Of a DNA stretch of 64,000 nt, positions 4,193-44,744 are shown in pieces. Position 1 is the first letter of the stretch. Every line of letters starts with the position of its first letter. The position numbers and the translations under genes are program-made. This stretch comes from a virus (lineage: Duplodnaviria > Caudoviricetes). The notes below the pieces were generated by a model. The model was given only the letters and a program-made list of their open reading frames with translations. It was not told the DNA's origin and made no database searches. The stretch is taken from positions 1 to 64,000 of IMG/VR virus record IMGVR_UViG_3300032305_002044. The stretch is one strand, 5' to 3'.

Positions 4193-6211
4193 ATGTTGTC
4201 ATTTAAGTTGACTGACGAGTTCATCTCGTCGTATGAAGGTAAAAAAGTTCCCTGGGGTTACCAAGACGCAGGTGGAAATGCGGTCGGGGAAATCACATTT
4301 CTACGAACCTATTCTCGTAAGAAAGAGGATGGCACTAAAGAGACTTGGGTAGAAGTTTGCCGTCGTGTTATTGAGGGTATGTACTCAATCCAGAAAGATC
4401 ACTGCAAGACCAACCGTTTGCCGTGGAATGAGAACAAGGCGCAAGCCTCGGCTAAAGAGGCTTTCGAACGCCTGTTCGAACTTAAGTGGACTCCGCCAGG
4501 CCGTGGGTTATGGGTAATGGGTACTCCTATTGTTACTGTGCAAAAGAATAGCGCGGCTCTACAAAACTGCTCATTTGTATCCACAGAGTCAATGACCAAG
4601 CACAACCCAGCCAAGCCATTTGCGTTCCTAATGGAAGCCTCAATGCTAGGTGTAGGTGTGGGCTTTGATGACAAAGGGGCAGACAAAGAGTTCACCATTT
4701 ACGCACCAACACAAACTATCAGCGAGTATGTAATCCCTGATACCCGTGAGGGTTGGGTGGAATCCACCTCTGCTCTGATTAACTCTTACCTACGCCACGA
4801 CCAGCCAACCCTTAGTTTTGACTATAGTGAAATCCGTAAAGAAGGAGAACCTATCAAGACGTTTGGTGGTACGGCAGCGGGCCCTGATCCGTTGAAGGCG
4901 CTTCACCAGCATATTATCCGAATCTTCAAAGATAGAGAAGGCACATTATTAACTAGAGTGGACATTGCCGATTTGGGTAACCTTATTGGAGTGTGCGTAG
5001 TGTCGGGTAACGTGCGCCGTTCTGCTGAGCTACTAATGGGTCGCTTGGATGATGATGACTTCCTTAATCTAAAAAATAGTGAGCGTTTTCCAGAGCGCAA
5101 TAGCTATGACAAGAAAGCTCCAGGTTGGGGTTGGATGTCCAACAACTCTGTTGGCATCTCTGTTGGGGATGATCTATCAGGAATTATTGACGGTATTGCT
5201 TTGAATGGTGAGCCTGGTGTTATTTGGATGGATGTAACCCGTAAGTACGGTCGCCTCATTGACCCACCAAACAACAAAGACTGGCGGGCAGCTGGATACA
5301 ATCCGTGTGCAGAGCAGAGCCTAGAATCGTTTGAGTGCTGTACTCTAGTCGAGACTTACCTTAACCGCCACGACGATATGGCAGATTACTTGCGAAGTCT
5401 AAAGTTTGCTTACCTGTATGCCAAGACGGTTACGCTTCTACCTACCCATTGGGAGGAAACCAACGCTATTATGCAACGTAATCGCCGTATTGGTACTTCA
5501 ATGTCTGGTATTGCTAACTTTGCTGATAAGAACGGACTACCTGAACTTCGTACTTGGATGGACTCTGGTTACGACACCGTGCTGAAGTACGACAGGATGT
5601 ACTCGGAATGGTTGGGTATTCGTGAGTCAATTAAAACTACTACCGTTAAGCCAAGCGGGACTGTGTCTATTCTAGCTGGTGAAAGCCCAGGTGTGCATTG
5701 GACTCCAGGTGGCAGGCACTTCTTACGAGCTATTCGCTTTGCCAATGATGACCCAATGTTACCTCTTTTTCAGTACGCAGGGTACACGGTTGAACCTGCT
5801 AGTGAGTCTCCAAAGACTACCAGCGTAGTTTTCTTTCCTGTGGAATCAGACGCTTCTCGTAGTGAGAAAGATGTCTCTATCTATGAAAAAATGTCTCTCG
5901 CTTCGGTAGCTCAACGCCATTGGTCAGACAACTCGGTCTCGGTTACTGTATCCTTTAATAAGGACACGGAAACTAAAGATGTTGGTACAGTCCTACACCT
6001 CTTTGACGGGCAACTCAAAACTGTTTCTTTCTTACCAATGGGAAACAAGACTTACCCGCAAATGCCGTACACACAGATAACTGCCGAACAGTATGAAGAT
6101 TACAAAATGAAACTGCTACCCATTGACTTTACAGATGTCTATGCAGGAATGGCAGCCGACGCTATCGGTGAGAAATACTGCAGTACGGATTTCTGCGAAG
6201 TACCGAAGTAA
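4193..6211 (+). CDS. nrdJ: Class II (adenosylcobalamin-dependent) ribonucleotide reductase, RTPR type
   Basis: PPGRGLW, LQNC, GNVRRSA, YNPCAEQ, TVKPSGT and C-terminal CSTDFC redox pair. Confidence 0.95.
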   Translation: MLSFKLTDEFISSYEGKKVPWGYQDAGGNAVGEITFLRTYSRKKEDGTKETWVEVCRRVIEGMYSIQKDHCKTNRLPWNENKAQASAKEAFERLFELKWTPPGRGLWVMGTPIVTVQKNSAALQNCSFVSTESMTKHNPAKPFAFLMEASMLGVGVGFDDKGADKEFTIYAPTQTISEYVIPDTREGWVESTSALINSYLRHDQPTLSFDYSEIRKEGEPIKTFGGTAAGPDPLKALHQHIIRIFKDREGTLLTRVDIADLGNLIGVCVVSGNVRRSAELLMGRLDDDDFLNLKNSERFPERNSYDKKAPGWGWMSNNSVGISVGDDLSGIIDGIALNGEPGVIWMDVTRKYGRLIDPPNNKDWRAAGYNPCAEQSLESFECCTLVETYLNRHDDMADYLRSLKFAYLYAKTVTLLPTHWEETNAIMQRNRRIGTSMSGIANFADKNGLPELRTWMDSGYDTVLKYDRMYSEWLGIRESIKTTTVKPSGTVSILAGESPGVHWTPGGRHFLRAIRFANDDPMLPLFQYAGYTVEPASESPKTTSVVFFPVESDASRSEKDVSIYEKMSLASVAQRHWSDNSVSVTVSFNKDTETKDVGTVLHLFDGQLKTVSFLPMGNKTYPQMPYTQITAEQYEDYKMKLLPIDFTDVYAGMAADAIGEKYCSTDFCEVPK

Positions 6212-9170: not shown

Positions 9171-9907
9171 TACGCACCTGCAAAAGTTTGTGTTGGGATA
9201 AGCATTATTACTGGTGAGAGCGGAGGATAAACCGTTCGGTGGTTCTCTCGGTCACAAGCAGACCACAACCTAAGTTGGGTAAGCTTGAGGACATCTTGGA
9301 ACAGACCAGTAGTTGTATCGTCACTCTCACCAGTAGTAATGGGATTAACCACGCGAGGTAAAGGTCGCAAGTTGAGACTCCTCCAATGCTCGCTTCGTCT
9401 AACGCGGTCTCCAATTTGAGGGAGACACCTCATAGATGAGCAAAGCGGAACGTATTTACCACGACCTTTACTCACCAGACACAGGCAAAATGCCCCTGAA
9501 CGTGCGTGGTTAAAGGGATTAGTATCAACAGAGAATAACTTACTACTACCAACCCTGACAACGCTAGGCGTGTACTTCGTGGTTCGAGTAGATACCGTTG
9601 TTGATACTAAGCTTGTTAGTAGGCGCAGAGGCACAGGCATTGTTGCAATATGCGAACGCAGGTCGTACGTTGCGCCTACTAAGCTTGTTAGTACGCCCAG
9701 AGGCTCAACCCCTACTAGTGAGCCACAGTCACTCTTACGCATAGCGCGTTCAGACAGGCACTCCGTTCGCAAGTGAGCGTTGGGCGTACTAAGTTTAGTA
9801 AGTGGCATAGGCGCAGGTACTTCTAGGACTGAAAGGAAGTAAGTATCCATTATGGAAGTCCTTGCCGAGATTTCACCAGTCGGTTTAACGCCTATGCCAC
9901 AAGTCAT
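9170..9907 (-). CDS. 245-aa ORF of atypical composition overlapping the structured array
   Basis: Open for 246 codons with TAATG overlaps at both ends; no recognisable fold. Confidence 0.5.
   Translation of the reverse strand: MTCGIGVKPTGEISARTSIMDTYFLSVLEVPAPMPLTKLSTPNAHLRTECLSERAMRKSDCGSLVGVEPLGVLTSLVGATYDLRSHIATMPVPLRLLTSLVSTTVSTRTTKYTPSVVRVGSSKLFSVDTNPFNHARSGAFCLCLVSKGRGKYVPLCSSMRCLPQIGDRVRRSEHWRSLNLRPLPRVVNPITTGESDDTTTGLFQDVLKLTQLRLWSACDRENHRTVYPPLSPVIMLIPTQTFAGA
9203..9900. ncRNA. Candidate structured RNA or ssDNA array: six tandem long-stem domains
   Basis: Closing stems 9203-9220/9324-9341, 9345-9354/9504-9513, 9519-9530/9599-9610, 9616-9627/9671-9682, 9688-9699/9781-9792, 9802-9813/9889-9900; GAG...CGT caps five of them. 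Confidence 0.75.
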
Positions 9908-11778
9908 TAGAGACTCCGTAAGATGTTACGAGCCACACTAACAAGCTCGTTAGGCTTGGAAACTAATTCAATAGAATGTGCGTGGTGGCGGTAACGCTTC
10001 ATTGTGGCTTCCCTGTCCAGCGCAGACTGTTCCATAATCCACTCACTACTACTAATGAATACAATCTGACTAATAGTGCCGTCAATATTGTTAATACGCT
10101 TAATAGTAGAGTCACACTCGTCAGAGCGTGACCACTCCCCGTCTGTGATTACGAATAACAACTTAGTCTTGCGCCTTGAGGACTCAAGTATTGCCTCGGC
10201 GTCAAGCAAAGCGTCAAGTGGGTCAGTACCTCCACCGTCATACCAAAATCGGTATTGACTAGTGGCACGTTCGTTACTTCCATAAACAAGCTTGGTCTTG
10301 TCACTAAAGCCAATGACCGTAACCTTGCCGTCAATTTCCTCCAGCGCACGTTTGATCGCCCACATAGATTGAGAGACCTCCTTGATTACGTTGCCCATAG
10401 AGCCTGATGTGTCGCACATAATAACGGCTTCGATATTAAACTCGTCACGCCCCTCACGCCACTCATCAAAGACCGTGTTGATATCGTTGATATCCATATT
10501 CATAACACGGTTGATATTGAGCCTACCAACAGGCTTCTCAATGTCCCAATGTGGGTCGCTGTCAATACGAAGCTTGCTAAGTTCCTGACCAAAGGCTTTA
10601 CTCGCCACGCGGTAAGCGTTATCTACTGGGAGTAGATCGGAGGTTGCCTTGAGGTCTGTACGACCTGCACGGTCAGACTCACGGATAGCAGAACGTAGTT
10701 GTCGAGCCTCGGTCTTGGCTTGCTTAGACTTCATAACAGACTTGATAGCCTCGCGCACTACGTCAGCAAACTCCTTATCCATTTCGGTACGTTCCATAAG
10801 TGGGTCATATTCTTGGGACTCACCCTCGACACCTGCACCTGCACCTGCACTCGGCTCGGCGTTGGGTGGGATATTCTCGGCTTTCTTGTCCATATTCTTA
10901 GCACGATTAGCAATATTGCTTTGCTTATCATTACTTTCAGGTCTGCCAGACTTGAGCATTGAGCGTGAGCCACATTGTCCCTCGGTCTTATTCTTTGGGT
11001 CAGCAAGCTTGAGCAGGTTGTGAAACTCAACAATGAGATCATAACCACGTTCGTAATCACTTGGGTAAGTAAGTAGTCGGTATTCATCTATGATACGAGC
11101 GACATTGTTAGCGTGAGTTGAGCCGTGCCGTGCCACATAAAGGTCAGCAGATAGTTGGCGCACCTCGATAGGCAGGTAACGCCGACCTCGGATTAAAGGA
11201 AACAAGTCACTTGGGTCTGGGTTACTCATAATGTAAGTCAAAACAGACTGGGTAAGTGACAGGGTAGTGCTTGGGAAACGCGCGGTCATAAGAGTTTCGA
11301 TACGCAAGTCCTCAAGGATATTGAAAGAGGTTTGGTATCCACCTGATGTAACCTTGCGCCCAAACTCGGAGTTACCTCGAGGTGACCACAGGATATGAGC
11401 AACTTCGTGGTAGTTAATACCGTTAAGGCTAATGAGACTGTTATCGTCAATCTCGGCTAAGACGTTTGTGTTGAGATAGATAGTCTTGCCGTCATTGAAC
11501 GCAGGTGCTTCACCCATTGACTCCATATTGCTAAAGTCACCAGCAGTAACGGTAATACTAGACTTGGTAAGCACACTATCCGCAGTCTGGTACACACCAG
11601 CAATAGCCTGAAACCTAGCAAGCTTCTTAGCCTGTTTAGCCACAAGGTAGTCCTTGAGTTCGTCACGTTCGATCTGGGATAGACCCTCGCTAGAGTTGGT
11701 GCTGTTGTAGTCATACCAGTCTTGGTACAGGTTGCCCGTATTGGCAGACTTAGCAGGTTTCTTAGTTGGCATTACCAT
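9907..11778 (-). CDS. vWA (MIDAS) domain protein with an N-terminal HExxH domain, CobT-like partner of MoxR AAA+
   Basis: YHEVAH, NILEDLRIE, DTSGSM, GGT, ITDG. Confidence 0.85.
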   Translation of the reverse strand: MVMPTKKPAKSANTGNLYQDWYDYNSTNSSEGLSQIERDELKDYLVAKQAKKLARFQAIAGVYQTADSVLTKSSITVTAGDFSNMESMGEAPAFNDGKTIYLNTNVLAEIDDNSLISLNGINYHEVAHILWSPRGNSEFGRKVTSGGYQTSFNILEDLRIETLMTARFPSTTLSLTQSVLTYIMSNPDPSDLFPLIRGRRYLPIEVRQLSADLYVARHGSTHANNVARIIDEYRLLTYPSDYERGYDLIVEFHNLLKLADPKNKTEGQCGSRSMLKSGRPESNDKQSNIANRAKNMDKKAENIPPNAEPSAGAGAGVEGESQEYDPLMERTEMDKEFADVVREAIKSVMKSKQAKTEARQLRSAIRESDRAGRTDLKATSDLLPVDNAYRVASKAFGQELSKLRIDSDPHWDIEKPVGRLNINRVMNMDINDINTVFDEWREGRDEFNIEAVIMCDTSGSMGNVIKEVSQSMWAIKRALEEIDGKVTVIGFSDKTKLVYGSNERATSQYRFWYDGGGTDPLDALLDAEAILESSRRKTKLLFVITDGEWSRSDECDSTIKRINNIDGTISQIVFISSSEWIMEQSALDREATMKRYRHHAHSIELVSKPNELVSVARNILRSL

Positions 11779-13198
11779 TGTTAAGCACCTCCATAACAGG
11801 CTCGGCAGGAGTGGAGTGAGCCAAACCTAGTTCCTCCTCAATGTTGTAGCGGTAAGTGTCAATAACTAACTTGACACTTGCTTGCTCGCGCATTGGGAAT
11901 AGGTTGAGGTAGGCATAGATACCGTAGTCAATACCAAGACTGTTAATGTTACCCATTAGAGCAACAAGTGAACGAGTCGAGATCGGAGTCTGGATTTCCT
12001 CCTCCTCGAAACGGTCGCGTAATGAATTAGCCATTTCCAAGATTGCCTTACTTTTGATTAGTTTACCCTCAATGTCTGGGTCGTAAGGGAAGTCGAGGTG
12101 GTGTGTGAACCTATCGTTGAAAGCTTGGGATAGTTCCCGAGTACCACGATAGCCAAGATTACCGTCAGCAACAATGAGCAGATCAGGGTGAGCCTTGACA
12201 ACCTCCCCGTCTTTATCCGTTAGTTGGATTTCACGGCGGTAATCTAGTAGAGAATACAATTCCGAGGCGGTACGTTCAGGCATAAAGGTAATCTCACCAA
12301 TAAGCAAGACTCCACCGTTGCGTACCAAGTCTGTTATTGCCCCGTCTTGCCAATGGAAGTGACCGTCTGGGCTTGGGTTGTATCCACCAAATAGTTTCTT
12401 GGTATCCGTGCCAGCAGAGCAAGAGAAGTTGTAGTAACGGTATCCGCGAGCCGAGGCGTAAGCCATAACCGAGGAAGTCTTACCAGAACCAGCGTGACCA
12501 GTAATAAGCACGTTCTCGTCATTACGCATAGCAACGTCAAAGATATCAAAATCAGTAACATCACCTACGACCTTGCGGTTGATGTATTGCTTTGCCCACT
12601 TGATATCAGGCACACTTGCCAATTCCATTACCAAGCTTGGTGTGGTGGTCTGGCGAGAGATAGCAGGTTGGTTAGGTACTGCCACGTTAGAAATTGTCGG
12701 GGTGACTGGATTGCTAACAGGACTATTACCAAAGGCACGGTTAGGCACTAGGGCAGGAAACTCGATTGAGGTGTCCTTGTAACGGGAGTCGGTCAAGTAG
12801 ATAGCAAGACTGCTATCAGCGTTCTCGAAACGTGATACCAAGTCTGATACTAGATCGAAGTGGTTGAGAGTGTAATCGCCACCAAGCTTGGTAAGTTGAT
12901 CGGAGGCGGTGGTGGTCTTGTATCCCAAAGTAGTTACCTTGCCACCTTGAATAGCAAAGTGGTCATTGTCGGTGAGACGGATAGCAACAGGGTTCTTAAT
13001 GACACGGGTATTAGGTAGATCAGATAGAGGCGTTAGTGTCCAAGCCTCGGAACGACCACGCTTACCCGTACTGGTACGGTGGAATAATTGAATTGCGCCA
13101 ATGGTGTAGTTTGGCACGATAATAGTTTGGTCAAGACCTGCTTCGCCATTGTCACCAATGGTCTCGGACAGGGACTCAACGTAGAGTGCGATTGTCAT
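11762..13198 (-). CDS. MoxR/CbbQ/CobS-family AAA+ ATPase
   Basis: Walker A GHAGSGKT, WQDG, N.GY.GT..L..AF.DRF, ISTR; adjacent to vWA gene. Confidence 0.9.
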   Translation of the reverse strand: MTIALYVESLSETIGDNGEAGLDQTIIVPNYTIGAIQLFHRTSTGKRGRSEAWTLTPLSDLPNTRVIKNPVAIRLTDNDHFAIQGGKVTTLGYKTTTASDQLTKLGGDYTLNHFDLVSDLVSRFENADSSLAIYLTDSRYKDTSIEFPALVPNRAFGNSPVSNPVTPTISNVAVPNQPAISRQTTTPSLVMELASVPDIKWAKQYINRKVVGDVTDFDIFDVAMRNDENVLITGHAGSGKTSSVMAYASARGYRYYNFSCSAGTDTKKLFGGYNPSPDGHFHWQDGAITDLVRNGGVLLIGEITFMPERTASELYSLLDYRREIQLTDKDGEVVKAHPDLLIVADGNLGYRGTRELSQAFNDRFTHHLDFPYDPDIEGKLIKSKAILEMANSLRDRFEEEEIQTPISTRSLVALMGNINSLGIDYGIYAYLNLFPMREQASVKLVIDTYRYNIEEELGLAHSTPAEPVMEVLNNGNAN

Positions 13199-16292: not shown

Positions 16293-17309
16293 TTACAGAC
16301 CAGCAGTCTCGAGCACTGCCTTGCGAATGCGCGACTTCTCGGCATTCACTTGAGCGTCGAACCCACTAGCACTGGCGAGAATACCAGCGTTGGTACCCTT
16401 GCGCCCTAGTCGGTAGTAATCGACACGTTCGGTTAGCGCATTGAGCGCGCCCCAGCCTGTGCCCTTGATACCCGTCTGGGTAGGCCCGCGCCACAATTCC
16501 CACATAGTGTCGACTTTATCGTCGTACTTGGTGAGAACTGCTTTACCAGCAGTCTGGCGATCTGGCGCAGGGTAAAGACCCTCGATGATTTCGCCGAACT
16601 GCTTATCGGTGATAGCCGATTGGAACAGCGCGTTGGCTTCAACCTCGAACTGGTCAAGATAGGTAAACGAGATACCTAGAGCCTCGCGAGCCTGAGCCAC
16701 GCGATCTTGCGCGGTCGCTGTATGGCGAACCTTGAAAGACTGCTTGGTACCCATGCCCAAAGCCATGTTAAGCGTATTCTGGCAAACCACCCGAACTGGC
16801 GTGGTCATAGCCTGAATTGCGCTAGAACCGTCGTGTGAGGTCGTGACCAGTAAGTAAGACTTGGTAACGTCGCCGATACCAGCCTTGTCAAGCACGATGT
16901 CTTTCCCGAGCTTAAGGCTTCCGAATACTGTGCGCCCGTTGCGAATTGCTCCAGCAGACTCCCAGTAACCTCCACCGTCGAGCAGGTTGTCACCGAATGC
17001 GAATAAATCCTCATTCTGGTAGGTGTGGTAACGATCTCCCACGACAGCCAACACGTCTGGCGTGTTGTTGTTCAACACGTCGTTGCGAACCACCATGAAA
17101 CTAGGTGATTTGGTGGTGTAACCCTCGGGCAGGATTACATCCTCTAGTCGGACATCCCAGCCAGATAGCAATGCGCTATCCAACATTTGCGAGGTCGTGA
17201 CGTGTTCATCTTCATCGAAGATGTGCTGAGCCAGACCATGCCATGCAGGCGCGCCACGCAGTGCAAATGCGACGTCGCCATTGGCGTTCATCTCTAAGTC
17301 GTGTGCCAT
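16293..17309 (-). CDS. DUF932-family phage/plasmid protein
   Basis: MAH.LE, PAWHGL, TSHDGS, TPVRVVCQNTL, RHT, GT.WG.LNALTE..D. Confidence 0.9.
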   Translation of the reverse strand: MAHDLEMNANGDVAFALRGAPAWHGLAQHIFDEDEHVTTSQMLDSALLSGWDVRLEDVILPEGYTTKSPSFMVVRNDVLNNNTPDVLAVVGDRYHTYQNEDLFAFGDNLLDGGGYWESAGAIRNGRTVFGSLKLGKDIVLDKAGIGDVTKSYLLVTTSHDGSSAIQAMTTPVRVVCQNTLNMALGMGTKQSFKVRHTATAQDRVAQAREALGISFTYLDQFEVEANALFQSAITDKQFGEIIEGLYPAPDRQTAGKAVLTKYDDKVDTMWELWRGPTQTGIKGTGWGALNALTERVDYYRLGRKGTNAGILASASGFDAQVNAEKSRIRKAVLETAGL

Positions 17310-17390
17310 AAGGCAATCACTCCCAATCTCGTGAGAACCCCTGAATACGTAAGTATCTCTCACGCCAGCCGTTGCTTCTCAACTGTTCCA

Positions 17391-38172: not shown

Positions 38173-38205
38173 TGAGGGGGGCCTTCGGGCCCCCCTCATT
38201 CTTTT
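38173..38205 (+). terminator. Terminator after the MCP
   Basis: TGAGGGGGGCC-TTCG-GGCCCCCCTCA-TTCTTTT. Confidence 0.85.
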
Positions 38206-38713: not shown

Positions 38714-40291
38714 GTGGCAGTCCTTTCTGACCTATTGTCTAAAGTTCGCCTAGAACTTGGGGATAACGCAACTCAGTTCACCACTAACTTAACTGGTACT
38801 GGCTCCATTAAAGATTTTTATTTAGACGTTAAACCTGTAGATGCTACTTATCTTGTAGTTACTGTAAATGGCGTAGCTCAAGCTAACCCTACAAATTTCA
38901 CAGTTGAAGAAAACCTTGGTGTTATTCACTTTAATTCGGCTTCAACAACCAAAACGGGCTCTGGTGGCGGAGCGGGAACTAGCAGCTTTACGGTAAACAA
39001 TACAACAGGAATTGTTGTAGGTATGTCAATAACAGGCACGGGTATTGCTACAACCGCCATGGTTTCTTCTATTACAGGCTCTACTATAGTAAACGTATCT
39101 GTGGTTAATACTGGAGCGGTTTCTGGCACTGTTACATTTACTCAAATTCCAAAAAATGGGGCTCCAATCGTAGTCTCAGGAGTTCATTACCGATACTTTA
39201 CTAGTGCTGAGCTTACTACGTTCCTCAATACAGCCGTTCTGCAGCACACAGACAACCGTACAGACTCTTATGGTAGTAATATTACTATTGCTTCTATTCC
39301 TCCCGTAGAAGAGTACCCAGTGGCTATTTTGGCTACTGTAGAGGCTCTATGGGCACTTGCTACAGATGCAGCGTTTGACATTAATATTACTGCCCCTGAT
39401 GGCGTTGTAATCCCCCGTAATCAGCGTTTTGCCCAATTGTCCATGATCATTCAAGCTCGTAAAGAACAATATCGTGAGCTTTGCGCTGCTCTTAATGTGG
39501 GCCTATGGCGTATTGAAATGGGTATTTTACGCCGCATTTCTCGCACTACTAATAAATTAGTGCCTGTTTATATGCCTCAAGAAATTGATGATAGGACTAA
39601 ACCAGAACGCGTTTACATTGAAAACAACATGAAGGGGCGTACACCGCCTCCGAGCAATGTTGGCGTTTACGATATTATTCTTACTCAAGGTGATACTTGG
39701 AGTACTACTTTTGACTTCCCACTTAATCTTACTGATTATCTTGTTAAAGCTCAAATACGCACCTATCCAGAATCGCCAGTTCTTTCCGCAGAATTTACTG
39801 TTACAACTGTTACCGCAACAACTGGCGTAGTTACTTTAAGCTTAACCTCAGATCAAACCGAAGACTTACCGCTTAAATCTTTTTGGGATGTTCAAGTTTA
39901 TAAAGCTGATGGGTCGTTTAACCAAACTTATGTAAGAGGTTTAGTATTTGCTAACCGCGCAGTTACAGATGAAAACAATGTTGTAAGTACTCCATTAGCT
40001 GCTCCTACGTTTATTGCATCCACCCCACCTGCGGGTACTCGCACTGTAGCGTACTCATATCAATTCCTTGCTACTGGTCCTGATCCTCTATTTTATGTTC
40101 AAACAGGTACATTACCAACAGGTTTAAGCCTGGGTAGTACGGGTCTCTTAAGTGGTATACCTACTACGGCAGGTACGTATAACTTTACAATTCGTGTATA
40201 TAACTCAGGTTTAGTGTTTACCACTGCACAATCAACTTTGCCATTAAGTACTTTATTTACTGATTTAGCAGTTTCTGTGGTGATTAGTTAA
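38714..40291 (+). CDS. Head-tail adaptor (neck) protein with inserted beta and C-terminal Ig-like domains
   Basis: VRLELGD...YFT..EL..F adaptor pattern; QGD.W...F; LPTGLSL..TGLLSG.PT..GTY.FTI. Confidence 0.7.
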   Translation: MAVLSDLLSKVRLELGDNATQFTTNLTGTGSIKDFYLDVKPVDATYLVVTVNGVAQANPTNFTVEENLGVIHFNSASTTKTGSGGGAGTSSFTVNNTTGIVVGMSITGTGIATTAMVSSITGSTIVNVSVVNTGAVSGTVTFTQIPKNGAPIVVSGVHYRYFTSAELTTFLNTAVLQHTDNRTDSYGSNITIASIPPVEEYPVAILATVEALWALATDAAFDINITAPDGVVIPRNQRFAQLSMIIQARKEQYRELCAALNVGLWRIEMGILRRISRTTNKLVPVYMPQEIDDRTKPERVYIENNMKGRTPPPSNVGVYDIILTQGDTWSTTFDFPLNLTDYLVKAQIRTYPESPVLSAEFTVTTVTATTGVVTLSLTSDQTEDLPLKSFWDVQVYKADGSFNQTYVRGLVFANRAVTDENNVVSTPLAAPTFIASTPPAGTRTVAYSYQFLATGPDPLFYVQTGTLPTGLSLGSTGLLSGIPTTAGTYNFTIRVYNSGLVFTTAQSTLPLSTLFTDLAVSVVIS

Positions 40292-41832
40292 TGAGTGAAG
40301 AAATAGTTGTAGTTACTCCAATTCCTAGTAGTACCGTAGTTGTAAACCCTCCAACAGGTAGTACTAGTGCTAGCACTGTTGTAGATGTAAATGCCGCTTC
40401 TGTTGGTCCACAAGGTCCTACTGGTCCAACTGGTCCTAAAGGAAATTACACTGTTTCAGAGACCGAACCCGTAAACCCAATAGTTGGTGACACTTGGTTT
40501 AAATCTTCTACTGCTCAAATGTATTTAAGATACGATGGTTACTGGGTAGAGACTTCTACAAGTTATTTAGGTCCTGACCAAAAAGCAGCTAAAGTTCTTT
40601 ATGTGGATACGGATGGTAGTGACAGTAATGATGGAAAATCTGTCGGTAAAGCAAAACGTACTATTAAATCTGCCTTAGATTACGTAGCTTCGTTAGGTGT
40701 TGCAGGTAAAAACTATACTGTCTTTATTAAAAGTGGAGACTATACAGAAATTAACCCAATAACTATTCCAGAAAAAGTTGCACTTGTTGGAGATAGTTTA
40801 CGAACCGTAACTATTAGACCACAATACCCTGATAGGGACATTTTTTATGTAAGTGATGGATGTTACATAACTGAGGTAACTTTTAGAGACCATGTACAAC
40901 CTGCAAATCCAAATCCAAATGCAGATGGAAGTGGCGGAGCAGCAATTGCCTATAAGCCGCATGTTGGAGACCTTAGCCTCAGACCAGAAATTAGGCAAAG
41001 TCCTTATGTTTACAACTGCTCATCTATTACAACTACTGGTACAGGTATGCGTATTGATGGAAACCACGTTGGTGGCGGAAAGTCTATGCTTGCTGCTCAA
41101 TACACTCAAATTAACCAAAATGGAAAAGGCATACATATTCTAAATAAAGGATATGCGCAGTTAATTGGAATTTACACCATTTGCTGTGATATTGGAATTC
41201 TTTGTGAGAGTGGTGGATTCTGCTCCCTTATTGGTTCTGACACTAGCTTTGGTAACATAGGTCTTAAAGCATCTGGTGTAAGTAATATTCTTTACACAGG
41301 AACAGCTCCTGCAGTTAGTGTAAACGCCACTAGTGTAACTATTACAAATATTAGAAATTCTGATACAAACGCTCTTCAAATTCCTTATGCTAACAACGTA
41401 GTATCTTTTGAGGAACCTCGTAGTCCTGATACCCGTAAGTTTTACACAATTAAAAAAATAGAAAATGCGTCAGCAGGGACAGCAAAACTAACTTTTGCTG
41501 AAAGAATATCAACTCCAGTTGCAGCAAGTGCAACCGCATATTTCTATCAATCAAGTAGAATTACGGCTGCTGGTCATACTTTTGAGTACGCTGGCTCAGG
41601 AGTCAATTTAACAACAGCACTTCCTCAGGCAGGTGGAATTCCAAATCAAGAGCTTGAAATTAAAGAAGAATACGGCGGTCAAGTTTACCGAACTAGTACA
41701 GACCAACTTGGTGACTTTAGAATTGGAAATGATCTAGTAATTAACCGAGGCACTGGAGACATTACTGGAGTTGCCTTTGATAGAAGTTTGTTTGCCGTTC
41801 TTACCCCTTACATCTTAGCGCTTGAGAGTTAA
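40291..41832 (+). CDS. Fibre or spike protein with a collagen-like stretch and beta-helix domain
   Basis: GPQGPTGPTGP; LYV...G.D.NDG.S...AK.TI..A; SPYV.NC. Confidence 0.7.
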   Translation: MSEEIVVVTPIPSSTVVVNPPTGSTSASTVVDVNAASVGPQGPTGPTGPKGNYTVSETEPVNPIVGDTWFKSSTAQMYLRYDGYWVETSTSYLGPDQKAAKVLYVDTDGSDSNDGKSVGKAKRTIKSALDYVASLGVAGKNYTVFIKSGDYTEINPITIPEKVALVGDSLRTVTIRPQYPDRDIFYVSDGCYITEVTFRDHVQPANPNPNADGSGGAAIAYKPHVGDLSLRPEIRQSPYVYNCSSITTTGTGMRIDGNHVGGGKSMLAAQYTQINQNGKGIHILNKGYAQLIGIYTICCDIGILCESGGFCSLIGSDTSFGNIGLKASGVSNILYTGTAPAVSVNATSVTITNIRNSDTNALQIPYANNVVSFEEPRSPDTRKFYTIKKIENASAGTAKLTFAERISTPVAASATAYFYQSSRITAAGHTFEYAGSGVNLTTALPQAGGIPNQELEIKEEYGGQVYRTSTDQLGDFRIGNDLVINRGTGDITGVAFDRSLFAVLTPYILALES

Positions 41833-42134
41833 TGATGAAAAAATTTGACCCAGCAACTATGCCAGAAACTACTTCACCCACTGTAAGGGCGCTTAGAACT
41901 TTTGTTGAACGATCTATTGAAAATGAAATAGATAAAATTACTTTACTTTACGGGGACAAAACAGCAGAGATTGTAGAAAAATCTTTACGTGCAGTTACTT
42001 TTCAAATCTTTCACAAAAATCCAAAAGTACATACTGAAGCTATAGAAGACCCTTGTGCTTTTGATGATGCAATTAAAAAACTGTTTAACATTACTCCAGA
42101 TGAGTTTTTAATAGACCTAGATGTTAAGGAATAA
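41832..42134 (+). CDS. Stand-alone glutamyl-tRNA reductase (HemA) dimerisation-domain-like protein
   Basis: PTVRALR..V....E.EI...VEKSLR.V...I.H..P...F.DAI.KLF.I. Confidence 0.55.
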   Translation: MMKKFDPATMPETTSPTVRALRTFVERSIENEIDKITLLYGDKTAEIVEKSLRAVTFQIFHKNPKVHTEAIEDPCAFDDAIKKLFNITPDEFLIDLDVKE

Positions 42135-42136
42135 CT

Positions 42137-42490
42137 ATGGCACTAAATACATTTAAGACTAGAACTTTGGCACTATCAACGACTTCTACACTAGTGTACA
42201 CTGCTCCTGAAAACTACACTTCCATTATTATTATGGCGCAGGTTAGCAACGTAAACGTATCTGGCTCTGCAGTTAGCGTAACTGTATCTCACCGTAACGT
42301 TTCAGATGACCTTGTGCCTGTTACAACTGACACTCAGTTGGTACAAGGTTTTAGCATTCCAGTAAATGACTCGGCATCTGTAATAACAGGTAAATTAGTA
42401 TTAGAACAAAAACAATCTGTGGTGGCCTCAGCAAGCGCAACTAATTCTGCAAAAATAATCCTTAGCATATTGGAGACCTTGAATGGCTAG
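42137..42490 (+). CDS. Small virion beta-sandwich protein
   Basis: VYTAP...IP......GKLVLE...LS.LE pattern. Confidence 0.7.
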   Translation: MALNTFKTRTLALSTTSTLVYTAPENYTSIIIMAQVSNVNVSGSAVSVTVSHRNVSDDLVPVTTDTQLVQGFSIPVNDSASVITGKLVLEQKQSVVASASATNSAKIILSILETLNG

Positions 42491-44276
42491 TCTTCTATCG
42501 GGAAAGATTGTTACGCCTGGCAAAGTTGCTAATAGTGCTACTACAGCTACAAGTGCAAACACTGCTTCCGCAATCGTTGCTCGGGATGCGTCAGGCAATT
42601 TTAGCGCTGGCGCAGTTACTGTTTCCTCTATTATTGGTGGTACAACAGCAACGGCATTTGCTACTACAGAAAATTTAAGTATTGGTAGAACTTCTGGTTA
42701 CGATTCCCGCGGTTATATTACTAATAATGTTATGAGTGGTGGCAATCAAATTGATACTTACATTACTGATAATTATTCTGTAAGACAGGTACGTGCAAGT
42801 GACGAAGAGGATGTTCTTCTAGAAGTAAACATTGCAGATGGTAGCAGGTATGCAACAGGTAGTGGCATTGCTAGAACTAACGTAAACATTGCAACTGGTG
42901 CTTCAGAAGGTGCTGGCGGAAGCACTATTAAAATTGGTTCATTTAACGGCAATTCAACCACAGATATTCGTGGAACAGTGACTCTACCAAGTACCACTTC
43001 AATTGGTAACGTTGACTCTACCGAACTTAGTTACCTAAATGGAGTAACTTCTTCAATACAAGCACAGTTAGATAGTAAGACTTCAAATGTAAATCCAGTA
43101 TATGCATCTCCAGAATTTACTGGAACAGTGACTCTACCAAGTACCACCTCAATTGGTAACGTTGATTCTACGGAAATTAGTTATCTAAACGGGGTAACTT
43201 CTTCAATACAGACGCAGTTAAACGCTAAAGCCCCAACTGCTAATCCTACATTTACTGGCACTGTAACCCTTCCAGCTGGAACTATTGTTAATGCTGACAT
43301 TAAATCAGATGCTGCTATTGATTGGACTAAACTAGCAATATCTTCAACTGTTAGTTCTACAGAAATTGGATACGTTGATGGTGTTACATCTGCCATTCAA
43401 ACACAGTTAAATTCTAAGGTTTCAAATGTAGACCCAACATTTACAGCAAATGGTTTAACTATTAGTGCAACAGAACTTGGTTATCTTGATGGCTTAGAGA
43501 GCAACATTCAAGCACAGTTAAACTCTAAGGTTTCAAGTGTAAGCCCCACCTTTACGGGAACTGTTGGATTAGGAACATCTGCTGTTTTCTCTGTTGAAGG
43601 TTCTAGTAATGACGATAATGAAACTACACTTACCGTTGCTAACCCAACTGCAGATAGAACAATTACACTTCCTGACGCTGATGGGATCGTTGCTTTAACT
43701 ACAAGTCCTGCGTTTATAGGTACCCCAACAGCACCAACGGCATCCGCAGGTACAAACACAACACAAATTGCAACTACCGCTTTCGTTCAATCGAATTCAG
43801 AAAGATTAGTTGCAAAACTTTTATCTGCTACGGCTGCTATTGGAAATACTGAAACAGTAATTCTTAGTTTTACCGCACCTCAAGACAGTATTGCTGTTGG
43901 GGATACATTTAGATTTACTGGTTTTGCAACTCGCGCTGGTACTGGTAACGTTGCTCCAACATTTCGCATCAGAATAGGTACAGCAACCCTTACTGGTGCG
44001 GAGGTTTCTGTTTTAACCCCACCAGCCACAGCTACTGTTGCACCATTTAAATTTGAAGCAATAGTTACTTGCCGTAGTATTGTTGGCTCCTCTGCACAAA
44101 TTGGCGGTGCAGCAAGTGCGCTTTATTCAACAGGAAGTGGGGGAAATAGTATTACTGCTCCAGTAACTGTAAACACAGGAGTAAATAATCTTATTGAAGC
44201 TACAATTGATTCAAATAGTGTCAGTGGAAACACTTATAAATTTGAGCACGCTATTCTAGAAAAGTTGCCAGCATAA
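42483..44276 (+). CDS. Tail fibre protein with internal repeats
   Basis: Repeated TE..YL.GVTS.IQ.QL..K; SPAF.GTPTAPT...TNTTQIATTAFV. Confidence 0.8.
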   Translation: MASLLSGKIVTPGKVANSATTATSANTASAIVARDASGNFSAGAVTVSSIIGGTTATAFATTENLSIGRTSGYDSRGYITNNVMSGGNQIDTYITDNYSVRQVRASDEEDVLLEVNIADGSRYATGSGIARTNVNIATGASEGAGGSTIKIGSFNGNSTTDIRGTVTLPSTTSIGNVDSTELSYLNGVTSSIQAQLDSKTSNVNPVYASPEFTGTVTLPSTTSIGNVDSTEISYLNGVTSSIQTQLNAKAPTANPTFTGTVTLPAGTIVNADIKSDAAIDWTKLAISSTVSSTEIGYVDGVTSAIQTQLNSKVSNVDPTFTANGLTISATELGYLDGLESNIQAQLNSKVSSVSPTFTGTVGLGTSAVFSVEGSSNDDNETTLTVANPTADRTITLPDADGIVALTTSPAFIGTPTAPTASAGTNTTQIATTAFVQSNSERLVAKLLSATAAIGNTETVILSFTAPQDSIAVGDTFRFTGFATRAGTGNVAPTFRIRIGTATLTGAEVSVLTPPATATVAPFKFEAIVTCRSIVGSSAQIGGAASALYSTGSGGNSITAPVTVNTGVNNLIEATIDSNSVSGNTYKFEHAILEKLPA

Positions 44277-44396: not shown

Positions 44397-44744
44397 ATGC
44401 CAGCGATTGATTTTCCAAATTCACCTCAGGTAAACAGCACGTTTACTGTAGGCGAGCGTACCTGGAAATGGACTGGTACCACTTGGGATGTAGTTGTAGT
44501 AACCCAGATTACGGGACCTACGGGACCTACGGGACCTCAAGGTGCTTCTGGTGGATCATTTGTATTTACCCAAGCTTCCCCAGCTAGCACTTGGACTATT
44601 GCTCATAACCTTGGGTACAGACCAAACATATCTGTTGTTGATTCCGCTGGTTCTCAGGTAGAGGGAAACACCGTTTGGACTGACAACAATAACTTAACTA
44701 TCACTTTTAGTGGCGCTTTTAGCGGCGTAGCGTACCTATCGTAG
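44397..44744 (+). CDS. Short collagen-like fibre protein
   Basis: DFP.SP..., GPTGPTGPQG, WTIAHNLG..P. Confidence 0.75.
   Translation: MPAIDFPNSPQVNSTFTVGERTWKWTGTTWDVVVVTQITGPTGPTGPQGASGGSFVFTQASPASTWTIAHNLGYRPNISVVDSAGSQVEGNTVWTDNNNLTITFSGAFSGVAYLS

Follow-up and report, generated by a model that had tools for sequence, protein, structure and literature searches.

The window analysed here is the first 64 kb (64,000 nucleotides) of the IMG/VR virus record IMGVR_UViG_3300032305_002044, a phage genome of 93,416 bp with an estimated completeness of ~98% and a GC content of 43.8%. Embedded in a run of tail-fibre genes on its + strand is a small gene whose product is almost certainly a homologue, captured from a host, of the dimerisation domain (DD) found at the C-terminus of glutamyl-tRNA reductase (GluTR, encoded by hemA). 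The gene and its immediate neighbours are:

38173..38198 (+), strong terminator-like hairpin of 11 pairs, 9 of them GC, after the major capsid gene
38714..40291 (+), first gene of the fibre run, 525 aa, with an LtfC-like / L-shaped tail fibre assembly-like segment (phrog_1084, phrog_3304)
40291..41832 (+), tail-fibre or baseplate-wedge-like gene, 513 aa (phrog_17885, E 1.8e-80)
41824..41828 (+), GAGAG, weak Shine-Dalgarno-like motif read from the sequence, with a putative function
41832..42134 (+), stand-alone GluTR (HemA) DD gene, 100 aa (PF00745, homologues and an AlphaFold2 (AF2) model)
42137..42490 (+), gene for the 117-aa fibre partner (PHROG match to phrog_1276, of unknown function)
42483..44276 (+), tail-fibre-like gene, 597 aa, overlapping the 3' end of the 117-aa gene (PHROG tail-fibre/virion families, E 5.6e-12 to 1.5e-5)

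The preliminary description of this DNA had placed the open reading frame (ORF) at 41832-42134 between two virion genes, which agrees with the phrog_17885 tail fibre upstream and the tail-fibre-like PHROGs downstream. The start of the DD gene overlaps the stop of the fibre gene by 1 nt (TAATG), and its own stop is separated from the next gene by 2 nt. A second in-frame ATG at 41835 would yield a protein of 99 aa starting with MKKFDP, as in most homologues, and GAGAG lies 6 nt ahead of this ATG, within the 3' end of the fibre gene. The + strand genes from 38714 to 44276 are gapless, and ahead of the run no transcription signal other than the hairpin at 38173-38198 is convincing; therefore, the DD gene is probably co-expressed late with the fibre genes. 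The 513-aa fibre protein contains a collagen-like GPTGPTGPKG stretch. Two different fibre-module proteins, encoded at 40291-41832 and 44397-44744 (+), contain short collagen-like G-P-T repeats (PQGPTGPTGPKG and TGPTGPTGPQG).

The claim that this ORF carries the pattern of the HemA C-terminus is borne out by Pfam, NCBIfam, phmmer and profile-profile comparisons, by which the resemblance is not due to chance. In the profile search that had been proposed as its check, GlutR_dimer (PF00745) is the sole Pfam match (E 1.3e-4, 22.7 bits, profile positions 21-98 of 99), 0.2 bits short of the Pfam cut-off of 22.9 bits, a cut-off that the relative P0028 clears at 25.7 bits. The sole NCBIfam match is the GluTR equivalog NF000744 (positions 335-427 of 447, 22.4 bits vs a cut-off of 429). 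The ORF belongs to a family of proteins of 91-100 aa that form 24 clusters at 90% identity, and PF00745 is the top family for 23 of these 24 homologues, each searched independently. When run exhaustively over 1.84 billion proteins, phmmer returned five short representatives at 50% identity and one long protein, P0029 (E 1.7e-4), a GluTR of 412 aa with the domains GlutR_N, Shikimate_DH and GlutR_dimer, the C-terminus of which shares 37% identity with the ORF across 81 aa. When the family profile was aligned by hhalign with the C-termini of 14 host HemAs, the probability was 99.2% (E 3e-19, 89 columns, 31% identity), and the same profile matches two structures of GluTR from Arabidopsis, 4n7r and 4yvq, with E values between 1e-3 and 6e-3. 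A chance similarity between a helical protein and PF00745, to which the Pfam score just under the gathering cut-off and the non-significant structure-search matches described below might be taken to point, is practically negligible in view of the hhalign alignment, the phmmer match to a true GluTR and the agreement of 23 of the 24 family members. The structural neighbours and the host-domain control that follow speak against it as well.

Every one of the 30 feature neighbours and 10 structure neighbours in the ESM Atlas belongs to the GluTR family, the structure neighbours with template modelling (TM) scores of 0.54-0.62. The AF2 model of the ORF (pLDDT, the predicted local distance difference test score, 78) consists of helices at residues 16-40, 42-61, 64-72 and 78-85. 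Its best Foldseek matches in the PDB, to GluTR 5yjl, have a query-normalised TM score of 0.49-0.50 and a root-mean-square deviation of 3.3-3.7 A at E about 7, while VIA-align gives Z 5.1-5.2 to 4yvq and 4n7r, a value shared by numerous helical hairpins of no known relation. As a control, a genuine host DD was modelled by itself; in Foldseek it reaches only E 0.75-1.3 and a query-normalised TM score of 0.51-0.52 to GluTR. Since a true host DD scores no better, the weak structural statistics are attributable to the fold and do not indicate the absence of a relationship.

At E<=1, the catalytic domain (GlutR_N, PF05201) was detected neither in the ORF nor elsewhere in the 93,416-bp phage genome, and the NADPH-binding domain (PF01488) was likewise not detected anywhere in this genome. 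The protein therefore cannot be an enzyme, and the earlier statement that it is a stand-alone DD devoid of catalytic and NADPH domains stands. Longer, fused forms sought with the DD family profile were not found at E<=1e-3, a search that counts as weak evidence, and no real match was obtained among 50,697 phage records, whether by megablast of the fibre region or by tblastn of the ORF. Two kinds of match were discarded: phrog_4385, a weak PHROG match of the ORF that is not located on HemA in host genomes, and 28-aa matches in contigs L008 and L009, which are spurious as they fall within no ORF of at least 50 aa.

The two genes that flank the DD gene are the cassette into which it appears to have been inserted. 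The 513-aa fibre protein is 39-45% identical to cyanomyovirus fibre/baseplate proteins, and the 117-aa partner is 34-42% identical to its cyanomyovirus homologues. Fibre and partner genes are common to marine and freshwater cyanomyoviruses (Kyanoviridae) and to dozens of uncultured viral contigs. They are 0-3 nt apart in SynMITS9220M01, S-SRM01, S-B05 and S-T4, and their matches are ~10 nt apart in a fifth cyanomyovirus record, Marine virus AG-345-E15; PF00745 is absent from the genomes of SynMITS9220M01, S-SRM01, P-SSM2, S-B05 and S-T4. Among 80 viral contigs that carry the 117-aa gene, the fibre homologue ends about 10-41 nt ahead of the partner gene, with no DD gene, in 72, and a gap of ~305 nt is filled by the DD gene in three (L002/L045, L003/L046 and L082/G330, the last of which is a complete genome of 93,972 bp). 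The remaining five are uninformative, four being without a fibre match and one having a 2-kb gap. In all informative relatives that possess it (L002-L007 and L082), the DD gene sits at exactly the same junction.

Two related genomes illustrate this variation. The major capsid protein (MCP) of G333 is 88% identical to that of the phage studied here, yet its fibre gene is followed by the partner gene after a 3-nt gap, with no DD gene between them; the MCP of G330 is only 63% identical, and its gene order is fibre, DD, partner. The fibre C-terminus and the partner encoded by the G333 contig (L047, 8,384 bp) are 61 and 52% identical, respectively, to those of the window, which, set against the capsid identity, points to exchange of fibre modules within this phage group. 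Because the cassette is found without the DD gene at 72 of the 80 loci, in five cyanomyovirus records and in G333, the gene is very probably an accessory one and not a structural requirement: it is dispensable for, and variably present in (3/80 loci), an otherwise conserved phage module.

The same location invites the explanation that the domain has been exapted as a helical bundle serving the tail-fibre module, for instance as a chaperone, an adaptor or a minor virion protein, and has lost its link to haem. Its place inside a contiguous fibre run, where it overlaps the fibre stop codon, would fit such a role, as would the constant junction, a divergence rate about equal to those of the neighbouring genes and a presence that follows the fibre-module variant rather than the capsid lineage. 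We regard this explanation as unlikely, although it has to be reckoned with, since the cassette occurs without the gene in most phages, including one with an 88%-identical capsid, GluTR-specific motifs are retained beyond mere helicity, and no tail-chaperone family in PHROGs or Pfam is matched.

The DD gene is under purifying selection, with ratios of non-synonymous to synonymous substitution rates (dN/dS) of 0.20-0.30 for unsaturated pairs. Across the 24 homologues, whose identity falls to 52%, 25 columns are invariant, and the reading frame is intact at every locus. That the gene might be a functionless fragment of a captured hemA, decaying or hitch-hiking neutrally, would agree with its being only part of an enzyme and with its absence from close relatives; however, it is very improbable given the dN/dS values, the invariant columns, the intact frames and the retention of the gene across phages with capsids only 63% identical. 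Within the region covered by the phage protein, host DDs have 28 invariant or nearly invariant positions, 13 of which are retained (P16, R22, V25, E32, G41, V48, S51, L52, H61, P64, L84, F85 and F5). The phage family has fixed features of its own, namely M10, T17, T23, R53, an inserted N63, H67 and D78. The pattern is one in which the core and the signature are kept, part of the constraints of the enzyme context are gone and new constraints have been acquired.

The long phmmer match, P0029, shares 87% identity with the HemA of G001, a 1.8-Mb metagenome-assembled genome titled 'Actinomycetes bacterium', in which hemA is the first gene of a hemA-hemC-hemD-hemB operon and adjoins hemE and a chlorite-dismutase-family (hemQ-type) gene. 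G001 has a second GlutR_N match (contig C20:38052-38369, 82 bits), located in a frame of 430 aa, which may represent a paralogue of HemA. The DD family profile scores 51-56 bits on the C-terminus of G001 HemA vs 6-20 bits on high-GC actinobacterial HemAs, and it matches 18 of 301 genomes of G001's order at 34-56 bits. Seventeen of the 18 matches lie within frames of 415-524 aa, and the other (G125) lies in a 174-aa frame that begins inside HemA and is apparently cut short. The hem loci of the matching genomes have 45-54% GC, and the 45-50% of the donor hem loci is compatible with the 43.8% of the phage. A maximum-likelihood tree renders the stand-alone DD family monophyletic (100/98) and places it in a starred clade (99/95) with six HemAs of low-GC, small-genome Actinomycetes that bear an IFHKPT signature; the clade includes none of the remaining low-GC HemAs and no high-GC HemA. 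The phylogeny shows what appears to be a single capture from the hemA of a low-GC Actinomycetes sub-lineage, followed by divergence. A tblastn search with the full-length G001 HemA, made to recover other phage DD families, returned only full-length hemA-like stretches, in eight records.

G001's order, which we infer to be Nanopelagicales from its small genomes, its GC content and its pattern of HemA absence, is one in which haem synthesis is unevenly distributed. The freshwater acI lineage (Nanopelagicaceae) is without haem biosynthesis, and other Nanopelagicales retain more of it (10.1101/2021.01.11.426183; PMC12817590); the scarcity of HemA among the genomes of G001's order agrees with this published pattern of haem loss.

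Being a dimerisation and docking domain alone, the protein could act solely by binding. We propose, with a probability of roughly 50% for the explanation as a whole, that it is a host-derived, non-catalytic copy of the GluTR DD that acts on the enzyme at the entry to host haem synthesis. The domain was captured once from the hemA of a sub-lineage of low-GC, small-genome Actinomycetes, was inserted as an accessory gene of ~300 nt and is retained in a small clade of myovirus-like phages of ~93 kb, where purifying selection acts on it. According to the proposal, the protein would be made late, co-translated with the fibre genes, and may pair with the DD of host GluTR, so that a one-armed GluTR:DD hybrid replaces the V-shaped homodimer; alternatively, it may occupy whatever else docks on the GluTR DD. 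By either route, the first committed step in the synthesis of tetrapyrroles (haem/B12 precursors) would be altered during infection, and the outcome for host GluTR could be either inhibition or protection. As the hydrophobic core and the DD signature motifs are retained, pairing with the DD of host GluTR may be expected. The homologous domain would be the most economical binding partner. Direct action of the protein on host GluTR is plausible but slightly less likely than not. The V-shaped GluTR dimer is thought to cradle the next enzyme, glutamate-1-semialdehyde (GSA) aminomutase (summarised in PMC4726326, PMC10620731). The recombinant DD of Arabidopsis GluTR folds alone as a stable unit and is the docking site for the regulator FLU (PMC4726326), and hemin-auxotrophic staphylococcal variants possess HemAs that are short of 42-54 C-terminal residues, an association that is correlational (PMC10620731).

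The preliminary description had also suggested that the protein spares Glu-tRNA for late protein synthesis. In a non-phototroph, the demand of haem synthesis on Glu-tRNA is tiny next to that of translation; the suggestion is therefore implausible on quantitative grounds, and nothing was found that supports it.

Several observations weigh against the proposed action on GluTR. Three of the 28 host-invariant positions are fixed to other residues in the phage family (D to S15, H to F24 and Y to F77) and 12 are relaxed, four arginines among them, so that the interaction surface may have changed. Structural searches by Foldseek and VIA-align against the PDB do not discriminate this fold, the tree is built on 99 columns with a long stem branch (1.25) leading to the phage family, and the tie of the gene to the fibre-module variant would also fit a fibre-tied role. 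GlutR_N is missing from all 24 near relatives of G001 with small genomes, and no DD match was obtained for 283 of the 301 genomes sampled from the order of the donor; if the phage host is among such genomes and is without hemA, there would be no HemA to bind. The 15/41 tally of the near-relative GlutR_N survey takes in G031 and G039, both flagged as unpublished genomes, which no other claim uses.

The replaced positions also bear on the possibility that the protein is a decoy, which titrates a host factor (for example, a sensor, regulator or protease adaptor) that normally binds the DD of GluTR, rather than pairing with GluTR itself. Some host-invariant surface residues are swapped for phage-specific fixed ones, as would be expected if the partner differs from the DD, and the plant DD is a known regulator-docking surface, that of FLU (PMC4726326), in keeping with the match of the family profile to PDB 4yvq. 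We consider a decoy quite unlikely: no DD-binding regulator was found described for Actinobacteria and the locus holds no candidate partner, although nothing separates a decoy from direct heterodimerisation.

An extension of the proposal, possible but doubtful, is that the DD protein is a host-range-linked factor that opposes or tunes HemA and travels with the fibre module, and that it represents one of several independent captures of this domain by aquatic phage lineages that are not related to one another. Searches for other phage DD families with a proteobacterial DD probe gave nothing convincing, and a scan of viral contigs with host DDs gave none. If the extension is true, the DD gene goes with the fibre module because only the hosts recognised by that module still have GluTR, most members of the host order being haem auxotrophs, and the branch point between tRNA-Glu and tetrapyrroles would be a recurrent phage target that is reached by domain mimicry and not by an enzyme.

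Outside the fibre run, the window encodes a portal, an MCP, a large terminase and a tail sheath, and the MCP is 70-73% identical to those of the Streptomyces phages BRock, LuckySocke and Alone3. This virion gene set and the kinship of the MCP identify the phage as a myovirus-like relative of actinophages with an unusually low GC content. The genome is a mosaic of a BRock-type (Streptomyces phage) capsid and an aquatic fibre cassette at 40291-42490 (+). Other genes of the window are:

4193-6211 (+), adenosylcobalamin-dependent ribonucleoside-triphosphate reductase (RTPR; TIGR02505, 348.9 bits, cut-off 340)
9907-11778 (-), VWA-domain protein, downstream of the AAA_5 gene
11762-13198 (-), MoxR-like AAA_5 ATPase, adjoining the VWA gene
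16293-17363 (-), DUF932 / TIGR03299 'phage/plasmid-like protein' (191 bits)

Among 301 genomes of the order presumed to include the host, the phage RTPR has a single weak match; being nearly without a homologue in the donor order, this ribonucleotide reductase offers no clue to the host. According to the literature, most members of the presumed host order cannot make B12, and a B12-requiring ribonucleotide reductase is thus introduced by the phage into presumed hosts that are largely without B12 synthesis. A link of the DD gene to B12, prompted by the RTPR, is speculation. CobS and CobT were considered as identities of the AAA_5 and VWA pair and dropped, as NCBIfam recognises neither protein as such.

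If the proposed action on GluTR is correct, the DD protein would exemplify a different mode of metabolic take-over, in which control is gained by mimicking the oligomerisation or regulator-docking domain of a gatekeeper enzyme. The locus is well suited to testing this: it has an identified donor lineage and an exact insertion site, and natural pairs with and without the gene exist (G330 and the genome studied here vs G333). The presumed host order is split into haem prototrophs and auxotrophs, and the hypothesis therefore makes a prediction about the hosts of DD-carrying phages. The phage protein is also a small, naturally evolved candidate binder of GluTR.

To the best of our knowledge, the phage tetrapyrrole auxiliary genes described so far all encode enzymes, namely haem oxygenase, bilin reductases and 5-aminolevulinic acid (ALA) synthase. 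In full-text literature searches, no description of a stand-alone GluTR DD encoded by a phage was found, in line with the earlier remark that no phage precedent was known, and the nearest literature concerns the viral ALA synthase vAlaS, an enzyme (PMC11480375). Like vAlaS, the DD protein is encoded by an aquatic phage and would bear on the step at which tetrapyrrole synthesis begins; vAlaS is catalytically active and increases flux (PMC11480375), whereas the phage DD has no catalytic domain and could act only by binding. Small tail-fibre assembly and fibre-partner proteins resemble the phage DD in size, in their position between fibre genes and in translational coupling, but no sequence relation to them was found, and most phages that bear the cassette are without the DD gene. 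The closest counterpart is the C-terminal DD of GluTR itself (HemA/GtrR, PF00745), structures of which have been solved for Arabidopsis GluTR (4n7r, 5che and 5yjl) and for the isolated domain with FLU (4yvq). The phage protein is homologous to it over essentially the whole domain, shares the motifs P-x-V-x-x-L-R, S-L, I-F-H-K-P and L-F, is modelled as helical, with a TM score of about 0.5 to GluTR, and ends where HemA ends. It differs from GluTR in being free-standing and encoded inside a phage tail-fibre run, and in possessing a conserved N-terminus of its own of ~14 residues (MKKFDPxSMP) and a one-residue insertion, N63.

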